This document shows, piece after piece, positions 1 to 31,793 of a DNA stretch of 64,000 nt. The notes beneath the pieces are model-generated. The model did not search any database and had not been told where the DNA came from. It was given only the letters and a program-made list of their open reading frames with translations. Made by a program: the position numbers and the translations under genes. How positions within the stretch are numbered: position 1 is the first letter of the stretch; every line of letters starts with the position of its first letter. The DNA is from Patescibacteria group bacterium (GTDB lineage Bacteria; Patescibacteriota; Microgenomatia; UBA12405). The stretch covers positions 169,897 to 233,896 of the forward strand of contig WARW01000022.1 in the NCBI GenBank assembly GCA_013387215.1. The letters run 5' to 3'.

Positions 1-212
1 TTAACAATATTTTTCTCATAGACTTTCTTCTCCTATATATTTTAATAATTGTAAGAATCACAAGCAGATGGTTATGGTTGTTACTATAATTATTCAGCTT
101 ATAACTTTTACATTTGTAATTAATACATCAGAAAAATGAAGAGAAAATGAACAAAAGTAATATTTTTTACTTTTATTCCCTATTTACCAGTAAAAGAAAT
201 TTTAGAAATCAT

Positions 213-794
213 TTACCAACTTCCACTTGTGACAGTGTTTGATATAGTTTTCTTGAATTTTAGGCCGGTCGTTTGAGACAAACTTTTGTTGTATCCATTA
301 AAAACCAAATTAAAAAAACAAGTTTTGTTTTGCAGATTAGCATCGTTTTTGTTAAATTTTACAAATACAATCCAGTCAGATTGAGTGTTGGGGTTGAGTG
401 CCGGAGATTCGTGAGATAAATTTGTTAATTTGCCATGGAAACTTGATTGATCTTCATAATTTAATTCAATATCCAATGATTCACAAAAATCCCGATCCCC
501 GCCTGTTATTTCTGTTGTAATTTTATTGTATAAATTTGATTGGCCTTCATTCTTTAGGCGTACAGCATTTACCTGAAAACCACCAGGAATTATTCCTTTG
601 ATATCAAATAATTTATTTATTGGTGTGTTTGTGGCGGTGTCGATATCAGTAAAATCGAGTGTTGTGGCAGACATTTTATTGTCGGCGACAATTTTTTTAT
701 CAATAAAATCGGCATCGGTAACACCAGTTAAAATCAAGCCAAGGGAAAATAAAAGGAAAACTATTTTAGGAAAAATGCCAATAGACCTTCGCAT
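213..794 (-). CDS. TasA/camelysin-like secreted protein (SipW-cognate class signal peptide)
   Basis: N-terminal signal peptide followed by a DADFIDKK..ATTLDF motif resembling the A[YF]F[ST]D..TL.L motif of TasA/camelysin proteins; immediately downstream of the SipW-like peptidase gene. Confidence 0.5.
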   Translation of the reverse strand: MRRSIGIFPKIVFLLFSLGLILTGVTDADFIDKKIVADNKMSATTLDFTDIDTATNTPINKLFDIKGIIPGGFQVNAVRLKNEGQSNLYNKITTEITGGDRDFCESLDIELNYEDQSSFHGKLTNLSHESPALNPNTQSDWIVFVKFNKNDANLQNKTCFFNLVFNGYNKSLSQTTGLKFKKTISNTVTSGSW

Positions 795-797
795 AAA

Positions 798-1325
798 TTA
801 ATACGAAAATATTTCTGACAGATCTTTGAAGATCTTTTTGAATTCACCCAAAACAATGAGAAGGGCTGGAAAAAGAACTAAAACTACCAAACCTGGAAGT
901 GTTTTACTGAAAAATACTAATTTTCCAAGATATGGAATTTGATAATTTACTTTGCCGATGATATTCGAGGTGGAAATATAGGCATCATCAAGAACTTTGT
1001 TTGCATCACCTTTGGTATATATTTTTTGGATATTATTTTCAGTTTTGATATTTACAATACGATGAGTAACTTTCTGATTTTTAGAATTATTAAAAGTGAT
1101 GATGTCGCCTGCTTTATAATTTTTATCTGGTTTGATGACAATTAAATCACCTGTTTTGATGGTAGGCGACATGGAACCAGATTGAACCAAAAGGGTTTGA
1201 AAAGACCCTTTGATGTTAATTTTTGAAATTAACATTTCCCCGGCAACGACCAAAAGTATAAAAGTGATAATCCAGGTAAATAATGTCCAAAGATTAAAAC
1301 CCTGCTTCTTTTTATAATTTTTCAT
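798..1325 (-). CDS. sipW: Signal peptidase I, SipW/archaeal-eukaryotic type
   Basis: SGSMSPTIKTGDLIVI (catalytic Ser) and THRIV (His) motifs, KGDAN box, N- and C-terminal TM segments typical of SipW. Confidence 0.7.
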   Translation of the reverse strand: MKNYKKKQGFNLWTLFTWIITFILLVVAGEMLISKINIKGSFQTLLVQSGSMSPTIKTGDLIVIKPDKNYKAGDIITFNNSKNQKVTHRIVNIKTENNIQKIYTKGDANKVLDDAYISTSNIIGKVNYQIPYLGKLVFFSKTLPGLVVLVLFPALLIVLGEFKKIFKDLSEIFSY

Positions 1326-1328
1326 TGT

Positions 1329-1934
1329 TTATTTGATAATTTGTTTGAGACTGAAACTCATATCAAAATTTAGGCTATCGCTTTGAATTTCGTTGCCATA
1401 ATTGTTATCAGCAGTCCACTCCATTTCCAAATTAGCTTCTTGCCCAGGATTTAAAATGATCGGCGGATTAATTGAATCCCAAAGATTGTTAATTTTTGAT
1501 GCAGCTTCTTCTGTCATATATGATTCAACTTCTTTGATACCGTTAATATAAAAAGTTACTTTTATGTATTTACCTAATTCGCCTTCGTGAGGGCCTGGAT
1601 TACCACAAGTAGAATCAACCTCTTTTTCTGGTTCATTACAACCATTTTCATAATTTACAACATTATCTAGTGAGGCGGAAAATTGACCAGGCAAAGAACC
1701 GGTGTTTTTTACTTTCCAAACTTTTGAACCACTATTTATTCCAGAACCAATATCGGAAATTACAAACGGTTCAACACTAGAACCACTGGCACCTCCAACT
1801 TCAAGATTTAAAGTTCCAACCGCAAAAGTGTTGTTGGTACTAGTTTTTTTATCAGTAAAGTAGGCTTGGGTGACAAAGTATGAAAAAGATCCGATGACTC
1901 CGATAGTAACTAAACTGACTAATACTTTTTTCAT
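1329..1934 (-). CDS. TasA/camelysin-like secreted protein (SipW-cognate class signal peptide)
   Basis: Signal peptide then AYFTDKKTSTNNTFAVGTLNLEV, matching the AYFSD...GTL.L motif of the camelysin/TasA family; operon with the SipW-like peptidase. Confidence 0.55.
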   Translation of the reverse strand: MKKVLVSLVTIGVIGSFSYFVTQAYFTDKKTSTNNTFAVGTLNLEVGGASGSSVEPFVISDIGSGINSGSKVWKVKNTGSLPGQFSASLDNVVNYENGCNEPEKEVDSTCGNPGPHEGELGKYIKVTFYINGIKEVESYMTEEAASKINNLWDSINPPIILNPGQEANLEMEWTADNNYGNEIQSDSLNFDMSFSLKQIIK

Positions 1935-2068
1935 AAAATACTGATGAATTTATATTAATTTAGATTATGATTTATCCAATTTGCTGAGTTATTCTACTTT
2001 CGGATATACATAACAGATATACATTAAATACAAAAACAAAGGCTTAGTCAAGAAACAAATTATGAAGA

Positions 2069-2917
2069 TTAGTTAACTTTTGTTTTGAGAGATTTTATCT
2101 TAACAATAGCGAGTGGTGCCAATAAAAGTAGCGCACCAAAGCCAATAAAAAGGCCAGGAATTATATTTTTTTGTCCTTTTTCGGACGGTGATGGAGTTGG
2201 AGTTTTTGGGTCAGCATTGCTTAAAACTGGTGCAGATGTTGGCGGTATGGTTGGATTATCTGTTGGCAATGGTTCCATGACTGCAGTTGGTTCTGGAGAA
2301 GGTGTTGGGGTGGCAGTTGGTTTTTTTGTTGTAGTGGGTGTGAGTGTTAGGGTTGGAGTGGGAGTCGGGGTTGAGGTTGGGGCTGGAGTACTAGTAGGAG
2401 CGATACAACTATTATTGGCTGCATCTTTAGATGTGGGAGCTAAACACCAACTACCAGAAACTTTTGACCAACTATATTGAACTGAAGACGTATTTGGATA
2501 AGTATAACTATCCACCTCGTTTCCAGCATTATTCACTAATCTTACTTTATCCCCATTATTATTTAGATAATTGGCTGTTCCAAGATCAAATGATTTATAT
2601 GCTTTTGCCGGTATTACGAATGGTGATGGTATAGTTTTTGAAGTATCAGTGGAATCAAAAATTTTCCAACCAGTTAATTGAACTTCAAAATCGTTTGAAT
2701 TATAAAGTTCTACCCATTCATAGCCAGATGAAGGATTGGCTAAAAACTCACTCAAACTAATTCCCGTAATTGGTGTAGTTGTTAGTGTTGGAGTTGATGT
2801 GGAAGTTGGAATAGAGGTTGGTGTTGGGGTGGGTGTTAAAGTTACTGTCGCTGTTTGAGCCCAAACAGGTTTAGAGAAAGGCAGTAAAAATGTAAGCAAT
2901 AGTATAATAATTATCAC
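2069..2917 (-). CDS. Lamin-tail-domain (LTD) surface protein with Thr/Pro-rich linkers and C-terminal membrane anchor
   Basis: Signal peptide; TPTPTPT repeats; central EWVELYN...GWKIFD...NNGDKVRLVNNAGNEVDSYTY matches LTD fold signature; C-terminal hydrophobic segment plus basic tail. Confidence 0.6.
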   Translation of the reverse strand: MIIIILLLTFLLPFSKPVWAQTATVTLTPTPTPTSIPTSTSTPTLTTTPITGISLSEFLANPSSGYEWVELYNSNDFEVQLTGWKIFDSTDTSKTIPSPFVIPAKAYKSFDLGTANYLNNNGDKVRLVNNAGNEVDSYTYPNTSSVQYSWSKVSGSWCLAPTSKDAANNSCIAPTSTPAPTSTPTPTPTLTLTPTTTKKPTATPTPSPEPTAVMEPLPTDNPTIPPTSAPVLSNADPKTPTPSPSEKGQKNIIPGLFIGFGALLLLAPLAIVKIKSLKTKVN

Positions 2918-2933: not shown

Positions 2934-4418
2934 TTAACTGGTTAATTTAGAAATAGCGAGGTCTAGTTTATGGATAGTTTTTTCTTTACCAAGGGCTGGC
3001 AAACAATCGACAACTGGAGGTGTAAATTTAGACCCACAAATAGCAACTCGGAAAACCATAAAGTATTTTCCAACTTTATTTTCTTCATTCGACCAATTGT
3101 CTGATTTCAGCAATTCATCAATTTTTGCCTGAATATTGGAGGCTTTGAAATCGTCTATTTGCGACATTATGTCTTTGGTTTTTGAAATCATGTCGAGAAC
3201 CAAATCTTTTGACATTTCTTTGTCTTTGTACTCGAGAAGTAACGATTTATCGTAGTCCACATCTTCAAAAATAAATTTTGTTTGAGGTTGAAGATCTGAT
3301 AATTTAACAATTCTTTCTTTTAAAACCGGCAGTAAAATATTTATTTGCTCATCTGAAGCTTGAGGCAAAAACTTTTTAAACAAAACTTTTAATTCATCAT
3401 TGGATTTTTGACGGATATAATATCCGTTTAAATAGTCCAGTTTTTTACGATCAAATACTGGCGATTTTTTGTGGAGATGATCCAAACTAAAAGCTTGAAC
3501 AAATTCATCTAATGTAAAAAATTCACGATTGTCTCCCGGATTCCAACCTAAAAACATTAAAAAATTAAGCATGGCTTCTGGCAAATAACCTTCTTCTAGA
3601 AATGATCTGGCTGAAGTTGCGCCATGGCGTTTACTTAATTTTCCCTTACCGTCTGGATTTAATAATACCGTAAGATGGGCAATTTTAGGTGGTTCCCAGC
3701 CAAAATAGCGATAGAGTAAAAGATGTTTTGGAGTGGAAGTGAGCCATTCCTCACCTCGAAAGACATGAGATATTTCCATTAAATGATCGTCGACGACTGC
3801 AGCAAAATGATATGTAGGAATTCCATTTGATTTTATTAAAACCTGATCATCAATGTCATTAGTATTAAATTTTATTTTGCCGCGGATTACATCTTCGAAA
3901 ATAATAGTTTCATTTTTAGGAATGACCATACGGATGGTGTATGGTACTTTTGCATCAATATTTTTTTGAATTTCCTCGGGTGTTAAATGAAGACAATGTT
4001 GATCATAACGAGGAACTTGCTTGGCGGCTTTTTGAGTAGCACGAAGTTCATCAAGACGCTCTTGAGTACAAAAACAGCGATAAGCCAAACCTTTATCTAG
4101 TAATTCTTGAATATATTTTTGGTAAATTTCAAGACGTTGAGTCTGAATATATGGACCATAAGGCCCACCAATATCTGGACCTTCATCCCATTGCAGACCA
4201 TAGTCTTTTATAACTTGAAGGGTTCTTTCCATGGACCCAGGGACAAAACGTTTTTGATCAGTATCTTCGATTCTTATAATAAATTGGCCATTATTTTTTT
4301 TAGCGAGTGCATAATCATAAAGACAAGTTCTTAAGTGGCCAACATGATATTCCCCCGTTGGACTGGGAGCAATACGAGTTCTCACAATTTTGTTGTCAAT
4401 CATGGTTAATTTTATCAT
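2934..4418 (-). CDS. gltX: Glutamyl-tRNA synthetase
   Basis: HVGHLRT (HIGH motif) and KLSKR (KMSKS motif); class I catalytic core similarity. Confidence 0.9.
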   Translation of the reverse strand: MIKLTMIDNKIVRTRIAPSPTGEYHVGHLRTCLYDYALAKKNNGQFIIRIEDTDQKRFVPGSMERTLQVIKDYGLQWDEGPDIGGPYGPYIQTQRLEIYQKYIQELLDKGLAYRCFCTQERLDELRATQKAAKQVPRYDQHCLHLTPEEIQKNIDAKVPYTIRMVIPKNETIIFEDVIRGKIKFNTNDIDDQVLIKSNGIPTYHFAAVVDDHLMEISHVFRGEEWLTSTPKHLLLYRYFGWEPPKIAHLTVLLNPDGKGKLSKRHGATSARSFLEEGYLPEAMLNFLMFLGWNPGDNREFFTLDEFVQAFSLDHLHKKSPVFDRKKLDYLNGYYIRQKSNDELKVLFKKFLPQASDEQINILLPVLKERIVKLSDLQPQTKFIFEDVDYDKSLLLEYKDKEMSKDLVLDMISKTKDIMSQIDDFKASNIQAKIDELLKSDNWSNEENKVGKYFMVFRVAICGSKFTPPVVDCLPALGKEKTIHKLDLAISKLTS

Positions 4419-8460: not shown

Positions 8461-10134
8461 TCAAATAAGAAATATTTCTTTGACCATAAGTTGGGGAAGA
8501 GTTGTGTTATTCCAAGTGTTAAGTTCGAGTCGGGCAATAATATCAACATGATCACCCACTTTTAATTGACCATCCATTGATCCTTTTTTGAAAGCAATCG
8601 CATCGGCACTAATGTTTTCTAATTTTTTTGTGTCTGGATCATCAAATTTTAATTTTAAGTGATCCCCTGTTGAACCAACTAATCTTTTCTGAGAAACAAC
8701 TAAATCTTTAAATAAAAACAATGGTTCTGAGTTATCGATTCCAAATGGTTCAAGTTTTTTTGTTATCTGGCAATTTTTGACAGTGACAGCTTCCAGTTTC
8801 ATTTCTGCATCAACAGTGACAGACGGTTTTAAATCCAAGCCAGCTAATTTTTTATTAACAATTTTAGTTAATTCTTTTTTTAATTTTTCAATTTTTTTAG
8901 TTTCAATACTAAAACCAGCGGCTCCAGCATGGCCACCAAGATCGATAAATAAATCTGATACCTCACGAAGACTTTCTATAATATTTAGTTCTTTTATTGA
9001 ACGGCAAGAACCTTTGGAAACTTCTTCACCAACACTTATGGCAATACAAGGCAAATAATTTTTTTCAGTTAACCGACCAGCGATCAGACCAATAATTCCG
9101 GGATTGAAGGAAGGATCGTAAACAAACAATAGTTTGTCTGGCGAATCAGTTGATGCATTTTTTCGAATATTTTCTTCGGCAAGATCGAGACTGTCTTGTT
9201 GAAGCACTTGACGGTCTTTGTTGAATGAATCTAAAACTTTGGCATATTTATCGGCATAAAGTGAATTTGAACTGCATAAGAGACGCAAAGCATCGGTAGG
9301 ATTAGAAAGCCGGCCAACAGCATTAATTCTGGGACCTAAAATATACCCTAAATCATAGGCAGAAATACTATCGGCCTTAACACCACTTACTTGAACTAAT
9401 TTTTTAATTCCAGGACTGGGATTAAGCCTTAATGACAATAAACCATGAACCACGATGCTGCGATTAATGCCATTTAAAGGCATACAATCTGCAACTGCAC
9501 CTAAAGCTGCCAAACCTAAGTCAGCATTGGGGTTGAATTGCGAGGCCAATAGCCAGGCAAGAGTACAGCCAGACACTTGGGTTGAATGGACAATTGCCAG
9601 AGCGTTTGGCAATTCAGAGGTGGGCAAATGGTGATCCGTAATAATAACTTCAGTGCCAGATTCAACGATTTTTTCAATTTCTTTATTGGCGACGATTCCA
9701 TTATCAACAGTAATCAGTAGAGAGAATTTTTTATCTTTTTCCTTTTCGAAGGCGAAAAATGATTTTGCTTTAATACCATAGCCATCGTGTTCACGGTCGG
9801 GAATGAATGGCAAAACTTTTAGACCAGCATAACGCAAAGATTGCCAAAGAACTGCGGTTGAAGTGATGCCATCAACGTCATAATCTCCATAAATCAGGAC
9901 ATTTTCTTCATTCTTAATCGCTTTTTTAATTCTATCAACAGCTTTATTGAGTTGTTTTTGGCTGACTTTATATTGTTTTGGGGTTAGAGTTCCTGGAAAA
10001 ACAGGTTTTAAAAAATCGCTAATCTGATCTTTTTGAATATTTCTATTTTTTAAAAGCAAATCCAAAAAATCCAACTCAGAAAAGTCTTTTTCAATTACAG
10101 TCTTTGACTTAATAATAATTTCAGGTTTATTCAT
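8461..10134 (-). CDS. recJ: Single-stranded-DNA-specific exonuclease RecJ
   Basis: DHH motifs IYGDYDVDGITS and ITDHH, DHHA1 domain GGHAGAAG, C-terminal OB domain. Confidence 0.85.
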   Translation of the reverse strand: MNKPEIIIKSKTVIEKDFSELDFLDLLLKNRNIQKDQISDFLKPVFPGTLTPKQYKVSQKQLNKAVDRIKKAIKNEENVLIYGDYDVDGITSTAVLWQSLRYAGLKVLPFIPDREHDGYGIKAKSFFAFEKEKDKKFSLLITVDNGIVANKEIEKIVESGTEVIITDHHLPTSELPNALAIVHSTQVSGCTLAWLLASQFNPNADLGLAALGAVADCMPLNGINRSIVVHGLLSLRLNPSPGIKKLVQVSGVKADSISAYDLGYILGPRINAVGRLSNPTDALRLLCSSNSLYADKYAKVLDSFNKDRQVLQQDSLDLAEENIRKNASTDSPDKLLFVYDPSFNPGIIGLIAGRLTEKNYLPCIAISVGEEVSKGSCRSIKELNIIESLREVSDLFIDLGGHAGAAGFSIETKKIEKLKKELTKIVNKKLAGLDLKPSVTVDAEMKLEAVTVKNCQITKKLEPFGIDNSEPLFLFKDLVVSQKRLVGSTGDHLKLKFDDPDTKKLENISADAIAFKKGSMDGQLKVGDHVDIIARLELNTWNNTTLPQLMVKEIFLI

Positions 10135-10357
10135 GACAATAGCTTTAATTTTACACTGTTTTTATTAAAGCTAGGCATATATAAAAATTATATAAAAAAA
10201 CTTGATTTTCAGGGAAAAAGTGATATTATAGGTTGCATTACGAGCGAAAGCTTGTAATAAATTATTATATCGGCTTTGCCGATACTGACGAGTTTAGGTT
10301 CAAATTAAGCTTTGAGCCAGAACAGAGCCAGTGGTACTTTAAAAATACGGATTACCC

Positions 10358-10411
10358 GAGAGCTTGGGCTCATTGTGGGCAGCGCGCTGCCTAGAATGAG
10401 CACAAGCGCTC
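10358..10411 (+). promoter_or_regulatory. Long imperfect hairpin leader (apical palindrome GGCAGCGCGCTGCC) at the predicted 5' end of the 10439 transcript
   Basis: About 17-bp stem GAGAGCTTGGGCTCATT/AATGAGCACAAGCGCTC directly downstream of TTTAAAAAT (-10-like), about 28 nt before the start codon; homologous element before the paralog at 11229. Confidence 0.4.
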
Positions 10412-10438
10412 AAAGTTATAAATTAGGAGGTAATAGGT

Positions 10439-10906
10439 ATGAAAAAATTATTTTCAAGATGGTTCTTGATCCTTATATTGGTGGCTATCTTGTCCGCTTT
10501 TGCTGTTTGCTACGGAGTATCCGCATCAAATGCAAAACATACAACAGACAAATTCACGGTAGAAAATATAAATGGTGAGGTCATCTTGTCTAATTTCGAC
10601 AAAGACATTGCCTCTTATGTTGGACACCAAAGCAGTTATACTGCTACCGGGACTCACGAGTCTACCAGTCTGACAATTAATGTTGGACCTGGCGAATACG
10701 GTATAGTTGGCGGATCAAAAGTATTTTATTTTGATGACTTCTACACTGTTGTCGGACCTGGAACTTATACGTTTCAAGTCACTGACGGCTTTGCAGAAGT
10801 TGTTAATAGTAAATACGCAGCCAAACAGTGGCAATACAGATTGTGGCAAACACAAAAAAATAAATGGTCACTGAAAGGAACCTACAATACACTTTTAAAG
10901 TGGTAA
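10439..10906 (+). CDS. Small secreted protein, paralog A (signal peptide; GPG.YT..TDGF..VV C-terminal block)
   Basis: RBS AGGAGG 8 nt upstream; signal peptide with AxA-like site; paralogous to 11229..11633. Confidence 0.6.
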   Translation: MKKLFSRWFLILILVAILSAFAVCYGVSASNAKHTTDKFTVENINGEVILSNFDKDIASYVGHQSSYTATGTHESTSLTINVGPGEYGIVGGSKVFYFDDFYTVVGPGTYTFQVTDGFAEVVNSKYAAKQWQYRLWQTQKNKWSLKGTYNTLLKW

Positions 10907-10972
10907 TCCGTAAGGGCAGAATTGTTAAATCTTAATAAACTTTATGTTTATTATTTTTTATACTTTTCTGTC

Positions 10973-11028
10973 CTTTGGTCTATTGGTAAACCAATACTGA
11001 TGAGTCCGTTTTGAGGACGAAACCGAAG
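10973..11028 (+). ncRNA. Hammerhead ribozyme, type III (copy 1)
   Basis: CUUUGG-U-C^ / stem I UAUUGG-UAAA-CCAAUA / CUGAUGA / stem II GUCC-GUUUUGA-GGAC / GAAA / CCGAAG; all 11 invariant core nucleotides present, cleavage site GUC at 10978-10980. Confidence 0.85.
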
Positions 11029-11143
11029 AGGTATAGTTTTTTGGGAAATTTGTGCTAAATTACATTAGTTGTAAACTAAAATGGTTATTAAAAATAGCTT
11101 TTAATAGTCATTAGCACTTTAAAAAAGGTTGAATTGTTGTGAA

Positions 11144-11201
11144 ATGAGCTTGAGCTTGTTGTGGACAGTATTTTTACTGTTTAGAATGAGCTCAAGCTCA
11201 A
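11144..11201 (+). promoter_or_regulatory. Long hairpin leader (apical palindrome ACAGTA-TTTT-TACTGT) at the 5' end of the 11229 transcript
   Basis: 13-bp perfect stem GAGCTTGAGCTT/AAGCTCAAGCTC just downstream of TTTAAAAAA; same architecture and basal-stem sequence as 10358-10411. Confidence 0.4.
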
Positions 11202-11228
11202 ATTCTAAGAAGAAAGAAGGTGAGTTAA

Positions 11229-11633
11229 ATGAAAGGAAGGCGTTTTTTGGCTGCATTTTTGACTGTTTTAATTGTTTTTGTTTGTGTTTCAATACCTGCG
11301 TTTGCACATACTTGCAAACATGTAGACGTGAATATTGACAATTACCAATCAAACGGAGTTTATCAATCAACAGGGGTGGGTGTGACAAAAACAATAACGT
11401 TCTACGTTTGCCCAAACCAAATTGGCGTGCTTGGAGCCAATAAATATGGCGGCTACACTGATGGAGTTTACAAAACTTTTGGACCTGGATGGTACACAGA
11501 GACACTGACAGATGGTTTTGTGAATGTTGTAGACAAATCCGATGCCTGGAAAGAATGGACATACAGACTTAAAATGGCACGGGACCATAAGTGGGCAGCT
11601 AATCATCTTTTCACCAATGCGTTACCTAAGTAG
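11229..11633 (+). CDS. Small secreted protein, paralog B
   Basis: RBS GAAGGTGAG; signal peptide ..SIPAFA; C-terminal block GPGWYTETLTDGFVNVVDKSDAWKEWTYRL aligns with paralog A. Confidence 0.6.
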   Translation: MKGRRFLAAFLTVLIVFVCVSIPAFAHTCKHVDVNIDNYQSNGVYQSTGVGVTKTITFYVCPNQIGVLGANKYGGYTDGVYKTFGPGWYTETLTDGFVNVVDKSDAWKEWTYRLKMARDHKWAANHLFTNALPK

Positions 11634-19615: not shown

Positions 19616-19633
19616 GGTAAAATACACTATCCT

Positions 19634-19933
19634 AGAGAAGCTGAAGGGTTAACTCCGACGTAAAGCCGGAGAGGAAAGTCTGGACCACAAAAAGCAAGGA
19701 ACTTAAAAATATAGAGCAAGGCGTGAGCTTTGGGCAATGCTACAGAGACGAGTAGTCCCGCAAGGGATGAGATGAAACGAGCATCCTTCCTGTGGAAATC
19801 TCAAGTTGAGACGTTTGTATCTGGCTTCCCGAAGTAAATTCGGGATCAGGTTCGAAAGAATCTGATTTGAGAGTCTCAGGTGGAGAGAATAGATAGATGA
19901 CCCATAAACAGAATCCAGCTTAACAGTTTCTCT
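19634..19933 (+). ncRNA. rnpB: RNase P RNA (bacterial type A)
   Basis: P1 pairing AGAGAAGCUG/CAGUUUCUCU; P4 strands GAGGAAAGUCUGG and ACAGAAUCCAGCUUA match the universally conserved RNase P regions; TAAAAT -10 element 11 nt upstream. Confidence 0.8.
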
Positions 19934-19941
19934 GGGATATT

Positions 19942-31572: not shown

Positions 31573-31646
31573 CGGGAATTGGCGCAATTGGCTAGCGCGC
31601 ACGGATGGGGTCCGTGAGGCTGCAGGTTCGAATCCTGTATTCCCGA
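31573..31646 (+). tRNA. tRNA-Pro (anticodon GGG)
   Basis: Manual cloverleaf: acceptor CGGGAAT/ATTCCCG, D stem GCGC/GCGC, anticodon stem CACGG/CCGTG with loop AUGGGGU, T arm GCAGG-TTCGAAT-CCTGT; CCA not encoded. Confidence 0.85.
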
Positions 31647-31793
31647 CTCAGTTTTGTAAACAAAACTTCGTCGGATTTCAGATCGATTAAGAAATATCGA
31701 TCTTCAACCCTACTCGCTTGTATTTTATGGATTTCAACTGGACTATATATATAGTAGATTTGATGTTTTTTGCTATAATTCTTAAATAATTAA

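Follow-up and report, generated by a model that had tools for sequence, protein, structure and literature searches.

Bacteria of the candidate phyla radiation (CPR) are thought to live attached to other cells, and their surface appendages are, to our knowledge, known almost entirely as type IV pili. A gene cluster at one end of a 64-kb stretch of DNA from a Patescibacteria group bacterium (contig WARW01000022.1; the whole stretch is called the window below) raises the question of whether such a cell may also build a fibre of the TasA type. Four minus-strand open reading frames (ORFs) follow one another head to tail at positions 213-2917 and encode, in the order in which they would be read, a membrane protein with a lamin-tail domain (LTD), a TasA-like secreted protein (protein A), a SipW-type signal peptidase I and a second secreted protein (protein B). 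A preliminary description of this DNA had reported a SipW-type peptidase gene between two genes bearing the motif of SipW-cognate signal peptides, and all four ORFs and both motif strings that it quoted are present exactly as given. We conclude that a Microgenomates-like CPR bacterium probably uses this locus to make an extracellular TasA-type fibre system, in which A is presumed to be the major fibre subunit, B is presumed to be a minor or adaptor subunit, and the LTD protein would be a partner at the cell surface.

Proteins A and B and the peptidase encoded between them

Profile hidden Markov models (HMMs) and the predicted fold both identify A as a TasA-family secreted protein. It passes PF12389 over nearly its full length (27.9 bits against a threshold of 22.5; residues 4-198, model positions 6-191 of 196), most of its homologues carry a precomputed PF12389 assignment, and the model of the SipW-cognate signal, TIGR04088, is passed marginally (20.0 bits against 19; residues 22-42). 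Cleavage of the SipW type is predicted at TQA/YF; the junction QA/YFTDKKTSTNNTFAVGTLNL is present, the mature N-terminus YFTDKKTSTNNTFAVGTLNL resembles a donor strand, and the protein carries a Cys99-Cys110 loop. Across 102 A-family sequences the junction reads T-x-A/[YLF]-F-[TS]-[DA], with T in 92, A in 94 and F in 99 of them, and is followed by the strand motif N-x-F-x-[VA]-G-T-L-D-[LM], in which F, T and L are each found in 95 sequences and G in 101. The AlphaFold2 model of A, computed with 48 homologues, has a mean predicted local distance difference test (pLDDT) score of 76.8 and a predicted template modelling (pTM) score of 0.67; residues 26-37, just past the predicted cleavage site, are of low confidence, as is expected of a strand that becomes ordered only in the polymer. 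When this model is compared with the PDB using Foldseek, the first match is the TasA fibre subunit solved by cryo-electron microscopy (8aur_A, E 2.5e-6), which agrees with the TasA-like fold anticipated in the preliminary description, and the next are the CfaB and CS17 pilins, the Sulfolobus 0406 thread and AbpA, with the pilin domain of PapG also among the matches. Direct sequence searches of A against PDB chains returned nothing meaningful, and the A profile aligned N-x-F-x-x-G-T-L-D-L and K-N-t-G-s-L with TasA residues in 5OF1 and 8AUR at weak significance (E 0.4-0.5). The nearest GTDB representative is 56% identical in A. Among the A-family proteins, NCBI uses the names 'TasA family protein' and 'SipW-dependent-type signal peptide-containing protein'; the JGI name 'ribosomally synthesised peptide', found on some homologues, was rejected, these proteins being folded domains of 200 residues.

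The Pfam name of PF12389, 'Camelysin metallo-endopeptidase', would suggest a different reading, in which A and B are camelysin-type metalloproteases (Peptidase_M73), or else soluble matrix or antimicrobial proteins, and not fibre subunits. We find this scarcely credible. Neither sequence contains HExxH or any other zincin motif, so that the family label carries no weight here and the protease reading was rejected; moreover, the structures matched best belong to subunits of filaments built by strand donation, and the most conserved part of both the A and the B family is the motif of the mature N-terminal strand.

The peptidase matches TIGR02228, the SipW model proposed as a check in the preliminary description, at 107.9 bits against a cutoff of 51.85 (residues 18-164, model positions 8-157 of 158), and it scores under the cutoff of the bacterial LepB-type model TIGR02227. 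Against the equivalog model of Bacillus SipW, NF046067, it reaches 106.2 bits, under the cutoff of 190, which makes it the same type of enzyme as Bacillus SipW and not its orthologue by the NCBI criterion. Transmembrane segments are found at its N- and C-terminal ends, and the catalytic residues are Ser51 (SGSMSP), His88 (THR) and Asp107/Asp113 (GDAN...D). Its closest sequence matches in the PDB are human SEC11C and SEC11A, in which SGSMEP, VHR and KGDNN align with its own SGSMSP, THR and KGDAN. Judged by its sequence, the peptidase is thus a signal peptidase I of the endoplasmic reticulum (ER)/archaeal type, with a Ser-His(-Asp) arrangement and not the Ser-Lys dyad of the LepB type, and the precursors of A and B, the only window ORFs with the SipW-cognate motif, would be its substrates.

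Protein B is far more diverged. It matches no Pfam or NCBIfam model, and none at E values up to 1 in the case of TIGR04088, so that the two models by which the preliminary description had proposed to recognise both flanking proteins, PF12389 and TIGR04088, recognise A but not B. The claim that the second flanking protein is SipW-cognate nevertheless stands in another form, since B is distantly homologous to A and its signal motif is a conserved variant. BLASTP aligns only the N-terminal part of B with A (28% identity, E 0.001); a word-indexed search with B found 11 close relatives, and with the shallow alignment of these 11 sequences hhalign gave 13.6%. Significance was reached only with a 79-sequence B alignment from the loci described below. 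Compared with the deep A alignment (102 sequences), it gives 96.1% in local mode (E 3e-9; B 7-104 with A 3-99) and 97.4% in global mode (E 3.7e-11; 163 columns), where the alignment takes in the last strand (x-F-N-x-x-F against x-F-D-x-x-F). An exhaustive search with the B profile found 322 representative clusters at E values up to 1e-3; short B-family members gave sub-threshold PF12389 matches in 5 of 60 cases, and longer ones pass PF12389 unaided (P0261, 28.6 bits; best E 2.6e-10). The profile homology with A and the PF12389 matches of the long members together place B in a divergent branch of the TasA superfamily and make it, as far as can be judged from sequence, a full-length TasA-like paralogue of A. 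In NCBI and JGI, B-family proteins are called 'hypothetical protein' and have no precomputed Pfam domain.

The variant cleavage motif of B is TDA/DF, and the junction TDA/DFIDKKIVADNKMSATTLDF is present, with a donor-strand-like mature N-terminus, DFIDKKIVADNKMSATTLDF. In the 79 family sequences the junction reads T-D-A/D-[LIF], with T in 78, A in all 79 and the D after the cleavage site in 78, and the strand motif behind it is N-x-[FL]-x-A-T-T-L-D-F (N in 75, L in 73). To judge from these motifs, B keeps a strand-like mature N-terminus in a distinct, near-invariant cleavage context. The protein has conserved cysteines at positions 104 and 159, lacks the conserved Cys99-Cys110 loop of A, and ends in a C-terminal extension of about 20 residues with the sequence SGSW at its end (SSGxW conserved in the family). 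No TapA or related model in NCBIfam or Pfam matched B at E values up to 1; its likeness to TapA is functional and positional only.

Conservation of the A-SipW-B module

When the A profile was run against a single genome for each GTDB species, 80 loci came up, and 84 loci (L001-L084) were fetched in all; B homologues were identified by local HMM searches of the ORFs in related loci, and nearly every locus has one. The order A-SipW-B is kept in 78 of the 84 loci, with flanking genes that are unrelated across lineages. Writing S for the SipW gene, the gene string is A-S-B-S in 38 loci, A-S-B in 21, A-S-B-A-S in 13 and another variant containing A-S-B in six, and six loci are truncated contigs. 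Two peptidase copies can therefore be told apart, the one between A and B (S1) and a second SipW-like copy (S2), which follows B or another A in 55 of the 84 loci (38 A-S-B-S, 13 A-S-B-A-S and four others). All 85 S1 copies keep the catalytic Ser, His and Asp, as do about 53 of 54 S2 copies. The cleavage contexts of A and B also differ and are near-invariant (T-x-A/YF against T-D-A/D-L), and the presence of two SipW copies together with two classes of cleavage site hints at a paired specificity of peptidase and substrate.

The record titles of these loci name Shapiro-, Woese-, Levy-, Roizman-, Pace- and Moranbacteria and 'Microgenomates', and, going by these titles, most are metagenome-assembled genomes of the Microgenomates group of the CPR. 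Some titles ('uncultured Gammaproteobacteria', 'Limisphaerales') are evidently unreliable, the loci concerned being syntenic with those of Shapirobacteria. The preliminary description had guessed at a reduced genome, and relatives labelled Shapiro-, Woese-, Levy- and Roizmanbacteria and other Patescibacteria are in keeping with this. The closest long relative, L001, has an A protein 74-75% identical to that of the window and shares with it the synteny of aspS, a PBP5-type carboxypeptidase gene and gltX. Past B, L001 carries two more TasA-like genes, of 182 and 190 residues, with AVFTAQVKNTSNTFATGNASL and AAYFSGNAVLGDNTFKTGTVKF, then a 776-residue SipW-LTD fusion inside the cluster (9077-11407) and then an fn3 protein. 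The 776-residue protein has an N-terminal SipW domain, a transmembrane segment, a TasA-like NSYFSNTYTFGGNTFSTGYW motif and a large ectodomain, in which the LTD match is sub-threshold (Pfam, 20.4 bits, cutoff 34.3); a single chain thus combines the enzyme with its putative substrate, and P0233 and probably P0272 are built in a similar way.

The same data bear on the possibility that the peptidase is simply the general signal peptidase of the cell, its place in the cluster reflecting only shared ancestry with an archaeal-type secretion gene. Neither a LepB-type peptidase nor any other S26 peptidase was seen within the 64 kb, and some peptidase must process the LTD protein, whose signal peptide is of an ordinary A-x-A-like kind; SipW could accordingly serve the whole cell, which tells against a dedicated role. 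We nevertheless regard this explanation as quite improbable, given that the gene lies between A and B in 78 of the 84 loci, that in 55 a second SipW-like copy stands right after B or another A, that SipW domains are fused even to B-LTD proteins, and that the view of this genome spans 64 kb only.

The LTD protein and a proposed fibre assembly

What, then, is the LTD protein doing next to this module? In its build it is as the preliminary description had it, with a signal peptide (MIIIILLLTFLLPFSKPVWA/Q), a Thr/Pro-rich linker, a lamin-tail domain (about residues 49-140), a long Thr/Pro-rich stalk and a C-terminal transmembrane anchor, IIPGLFIGFGALLLLAPLAIV, followed by a basic tail. The domain passes PF00932 with 58.2 bits against 34.3 (residues 49-140, model positions 4-107 of 109). 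The more telling evidence comes from the B family. Among the top 150 B-family representatives 44 have at least 280 residues, and in 32 of these 44 (10/10 + 22/34) Pfam finds an LTD C-terminal to the B domain; fn3, Big_13 and CBM96 domains occur as well, and at least P0233 has a SipW domain in front, so that in some relatives LTD-bearing B proteins share a polypeptide with the SipW peptidase. LTD proteins also lie inside the expanded clusters of L011 and L082. The recurrent fusion of B and LTD is independent evidence that LTD modules work with B-type subunits, and it suggests that the link between the LTD protein and the TasA-like operon is probably a functional one.

In the alternative, which deserves serious consideration but is the less probable of the two, the LTD gene would be a mere syntenic neighbour, inherited with gltX in one subclade and functionally unlinked to the operon. 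With neighbours checked by a domain-only HMM and Pfam, an LTD protein stands directly upstream of A in the window and in about nine loci (L005-L008, L010-L012, L015 and the window), put at about 10 of 84 loci, all of one gltX-syntenic lineage, and the corresponding neighbours in L001 and L009 are non-LTD. In the window a gap of 134 nucleotides splits the LTD gene from A, and the gene starts only 16 nucleotides past the gltX stop, so that it may be co-transcribed with gltX. The L001 protein at the LTD position keeps the signal peptide and a near-identical anchor, NIIPGLFIGLGSLLLLAPLAIVKIQSLKTK, on an ectodomain without LTD. With adjacency confined to one subclade and L001 lacking the domain, adjacency alone could represent inherited synteny. 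What speaks for a functional link is instead the fusion of LTD to the B-type TasA domain in those 32 of 44 long representatives, sometimes together with SipW, and the extra LTD proteins within the expanded clusters of L001, L011 and L082.

Two further features of these loci were noted. A conserved ORF of about 120-127 residues lies between the LTD gene and A in L005-L012 and L015, and is absent from the window and L001. The anchor N-[YI]-[LI]-P-[LG]-[IL]-F-I..GG.LLL.PL.I.KIK is conserved after a Thr/Pro-rich stalk in the window (2069-2170), L001, L005-L012, L014 and L015; it loosely resembles PGF-CTERM or exosortase-type sorting signals, and no NCBIfam sorting-signal model matched it.

As a plausible assembly mechanism, A and B would be exported by Sec, and the membrane-embedded peptidase encoded between them would remove their unusual signal peptides at TQA/YF in A and TDA/DF in B. 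Cleavage would free an N-terminal beta-strand, N-x-F-x-x-G-T-L-D-L in A and N-x-F-x-A-T-T-L-D-F in B, and A, by analogy with Bacillus TasA, would polymerise by donor-strand exchange, the freed strand of one subunit entering the jelly-roll of the next. B, which is paired one-to-one with A, may act as a minor subunit, either as an initiator or adaptor, giving or receiving the first strand, or as a co-polymerising partner. In many relatives the B-type domain would serve as the attachment module for LTD adhesin-like domains. Here the LTD is a separate protein on a Thr/Pro-rich stalk with a C-terminal membrane anchor, and is probably the surface partner of the fibre, as anchor or adhesin. The steps of export, cleavage and strand donation are proposed from family membership and from the Bacillus precedent, and the roles of B and the LTD protein are drawn from paralogy, strict co-occurrence and domain fusions. 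The fibre or attachment function that the preliminary description had proposed for the cluster is thus consistent with these data.

The part assigned to B can be drawn in two other ways. B may be a second structural subunit that forms stoichiometric heterofilaments with A, as TasA and CalY do, and not a substoichiometric initiator or adaptor; we think this somewhat unlikely. B is a full-length homologue of A with a donor-strand-like N-terminus of its own, the two are strictly one-to-one in 78 of the 84 loci, and TasA and CalY of B. cereus co-assemble (PMC13082335). On the other hand, where large proteins carry LTD and other Ig-like modules, these are joined to B-type and not to A-type domains, as is typical of tip or adaptor subunits, and B has a distinct C-terminal extension and no counterpart of the conserved Cys loop of A. 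Pressed further in the direction of an adaptor, the B family would be a distinct adaptor or tip class that couples LTD (and fn3 or Ig-like) adhesin heads to a TasA-type fibre, so that Microgenomates-group CPR bacteria would attach to hosts or surfaces by a fibre with an A shaft, a B adaptor and an LTD head; in the window the head would have become a separate LTD protein, carried on a stalk with a membrane anchor, which docks to the fibre or anchors it. This last proposal is speculative, and we hold it to be unlikely as it stands.

Besides the local lack of a LepB-type gene and the confined adjacency of the LTD gene, both set out above, some further points count against the fibre system that we favour. 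TasA-like fibres of CPR bacteria are so far predicted and not observed by experiment. The Foldseek TM-scores between A and TasA are modest (0.43/0.38), with 16-18% identity. B matches neither Pfam and TIGR04088 nor, by direct sequence search or with the B profile, any PDB entry; its fold is deduced from profile homology, and an AlphaFold2 model of B from 11 sequences was unusable (pLDDT 41.4).

How far the locus resembles known systems can be judged from three comparisons and one analogy. The closest in layout is the tapA-sipW-tasA operon of B. subtilis (8AUR/5OF1; PMC9674648), which likewise has a dedicated ER/archaeal-type peptidase between two secreted proteins with a TasA-like signal and donor-strand motif, and whose TasA assembles by donor-strand exchange, the N-terminus of TapA resembling a donor strand (PMC9674648). 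A belongs with TasA in PF12389, has its best model match in the TasA fibre subunit and shares F-x-x-G-T-L-D-L with it; however, TasA is longer by about 60 residues, and A has a Cys-Cys loop. The order here is major subunit, peptidase, partner; the partner is a TasA-fold paralogue and not TapA; the peptidase, with a score of 106, stays under the cutoff of 190 for the SipW equivalog; a second SipW is present in most relatives; and the host is a CPR bacterium. The likeness to the Bacillus operon drawn in the preliminary description thus holds for the architecture and not for the individual components. For the pair of A and B the best analogue is sipW-tasA-calY of B. cereus (PMC4292775, PMC13082335), where two TasA-family paralogues are served by one SipW and co-assemble into TasA/CalY heterofilaments (PMC13082335). 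CalY and TasA are, however, close paralogues that both pass PF12389, whereas the divergence of B puts it beyond the reach of every library HMM; a CapP-like chaperone was not seen in the present locus, and LTD proteins lie outside the B. cereus system. Among archaeal TasA homologues, the operon of the AbpA bundling pili (Pyrobaculum, 7UEG; PMC9245690) has a large AbpB partner and no dedicated signal peptidase, in contrast to the present loci, to which SipW, often in two copies, is integral. Finally, and as an analogy only, the chaperone-usher tip adhesins FimH and CfaE recall the relatives in which a fibre-joining, pilin-like B-type domain carries a C-terminal Ig-like module (LTD); here there is neither chaperone nor usher, the envelope is of the monoderm type, and the folds are related only at the level of the beta-sandwich, so that no homology is claimed.

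Homologues of PF12389 are readily identifiable in Patescibacteria (PMC9245690) and, together with the NCBI names given above, this makes the core TasA-like claim one of an already known kind. Absent from annotation and from the searchable literature are the conserved A-SipW-B(-SipW) architecture in Microgenomates-group CPR bacteria, the recognition of B as a divergent TasA paralogue, and the frequent B-LTD and SipW-B-LTD fusions. Lineages of the Microgenomates group share a conserved TasA-type A-SipW-B module, often extended by a second SipW, with B as an obligatory partner. This makes the module a concrete candidate for an attachment or matrix fibre in these bacteria, and the TasA superfamily gains about 320 clusters of 'hypothetical proteins'. 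The picture of how a TasA system works is unchanged by this; a known system is extended to a new lineage and a new architecture.

Layout and surroundings of the locus

The coordinates of the cluster are collected in Table 1. A, the peptidase gene and B are each separated by 3 nucleotides, which indicates a tight operon, and the AT-rich intergenic region before A is presumed, from its position and composition, to hold the promoter of the A-SipW-B operon. A scan for consensus promoters was at chance (18 found against 18.9 expected), and a terminator scan found no terminator-like sites at the ends of the minus-strand genes. The cluster is incomplete in the window, as a further minus-strand gene starts at position 17 and runs out of it. 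Positions 1-212 align with the intergenic region, the ribosome-binding site and the start of the third TasA-like gene in L001, whose product carries AVFTAQVKNTSNTFATGNASL and gives a weak PF12389 match; by synteny, the gene that leaves the window would therefore encode a third TasA-like subunit.

Table 1 Features of the TasA-like locus and the adjoining region, in window positions
Feature	Positions	Strand	Remarks
LTD membrane protein	2917..2069	-	282 aa, GTG start
Protein A, TasA-like	1934..1329	-	201 aa
SipW-type signal peptidase I	1325..798	-	175 aa
Protein B, second secreted protein	794..213	-	193 aa
Intergenic region, AT-rich, 5' of A	1935..2068	-	134 nt, read from sequence
First codons (MRKILL...) of a further gene leaving the window	1..17	-	start at position 17
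gltX, bacterial-type	2934-4418		next to LTD gene

Two RNA genes of the window may be added. An RNase P RNA of 302 nucleotides lies at 19633-19934 on the plus strand, for which the best member of the Rfam clan is the archaeal model RF00373 (101.7 bits against a gathering score of 84) and not bacterial type A or B, in contrast to the otherwise bacterial character of the window. The sole tRNA gene found in the 64 kb is tRNA-Pro (GGG), at 31573-31647 on the plus strand.

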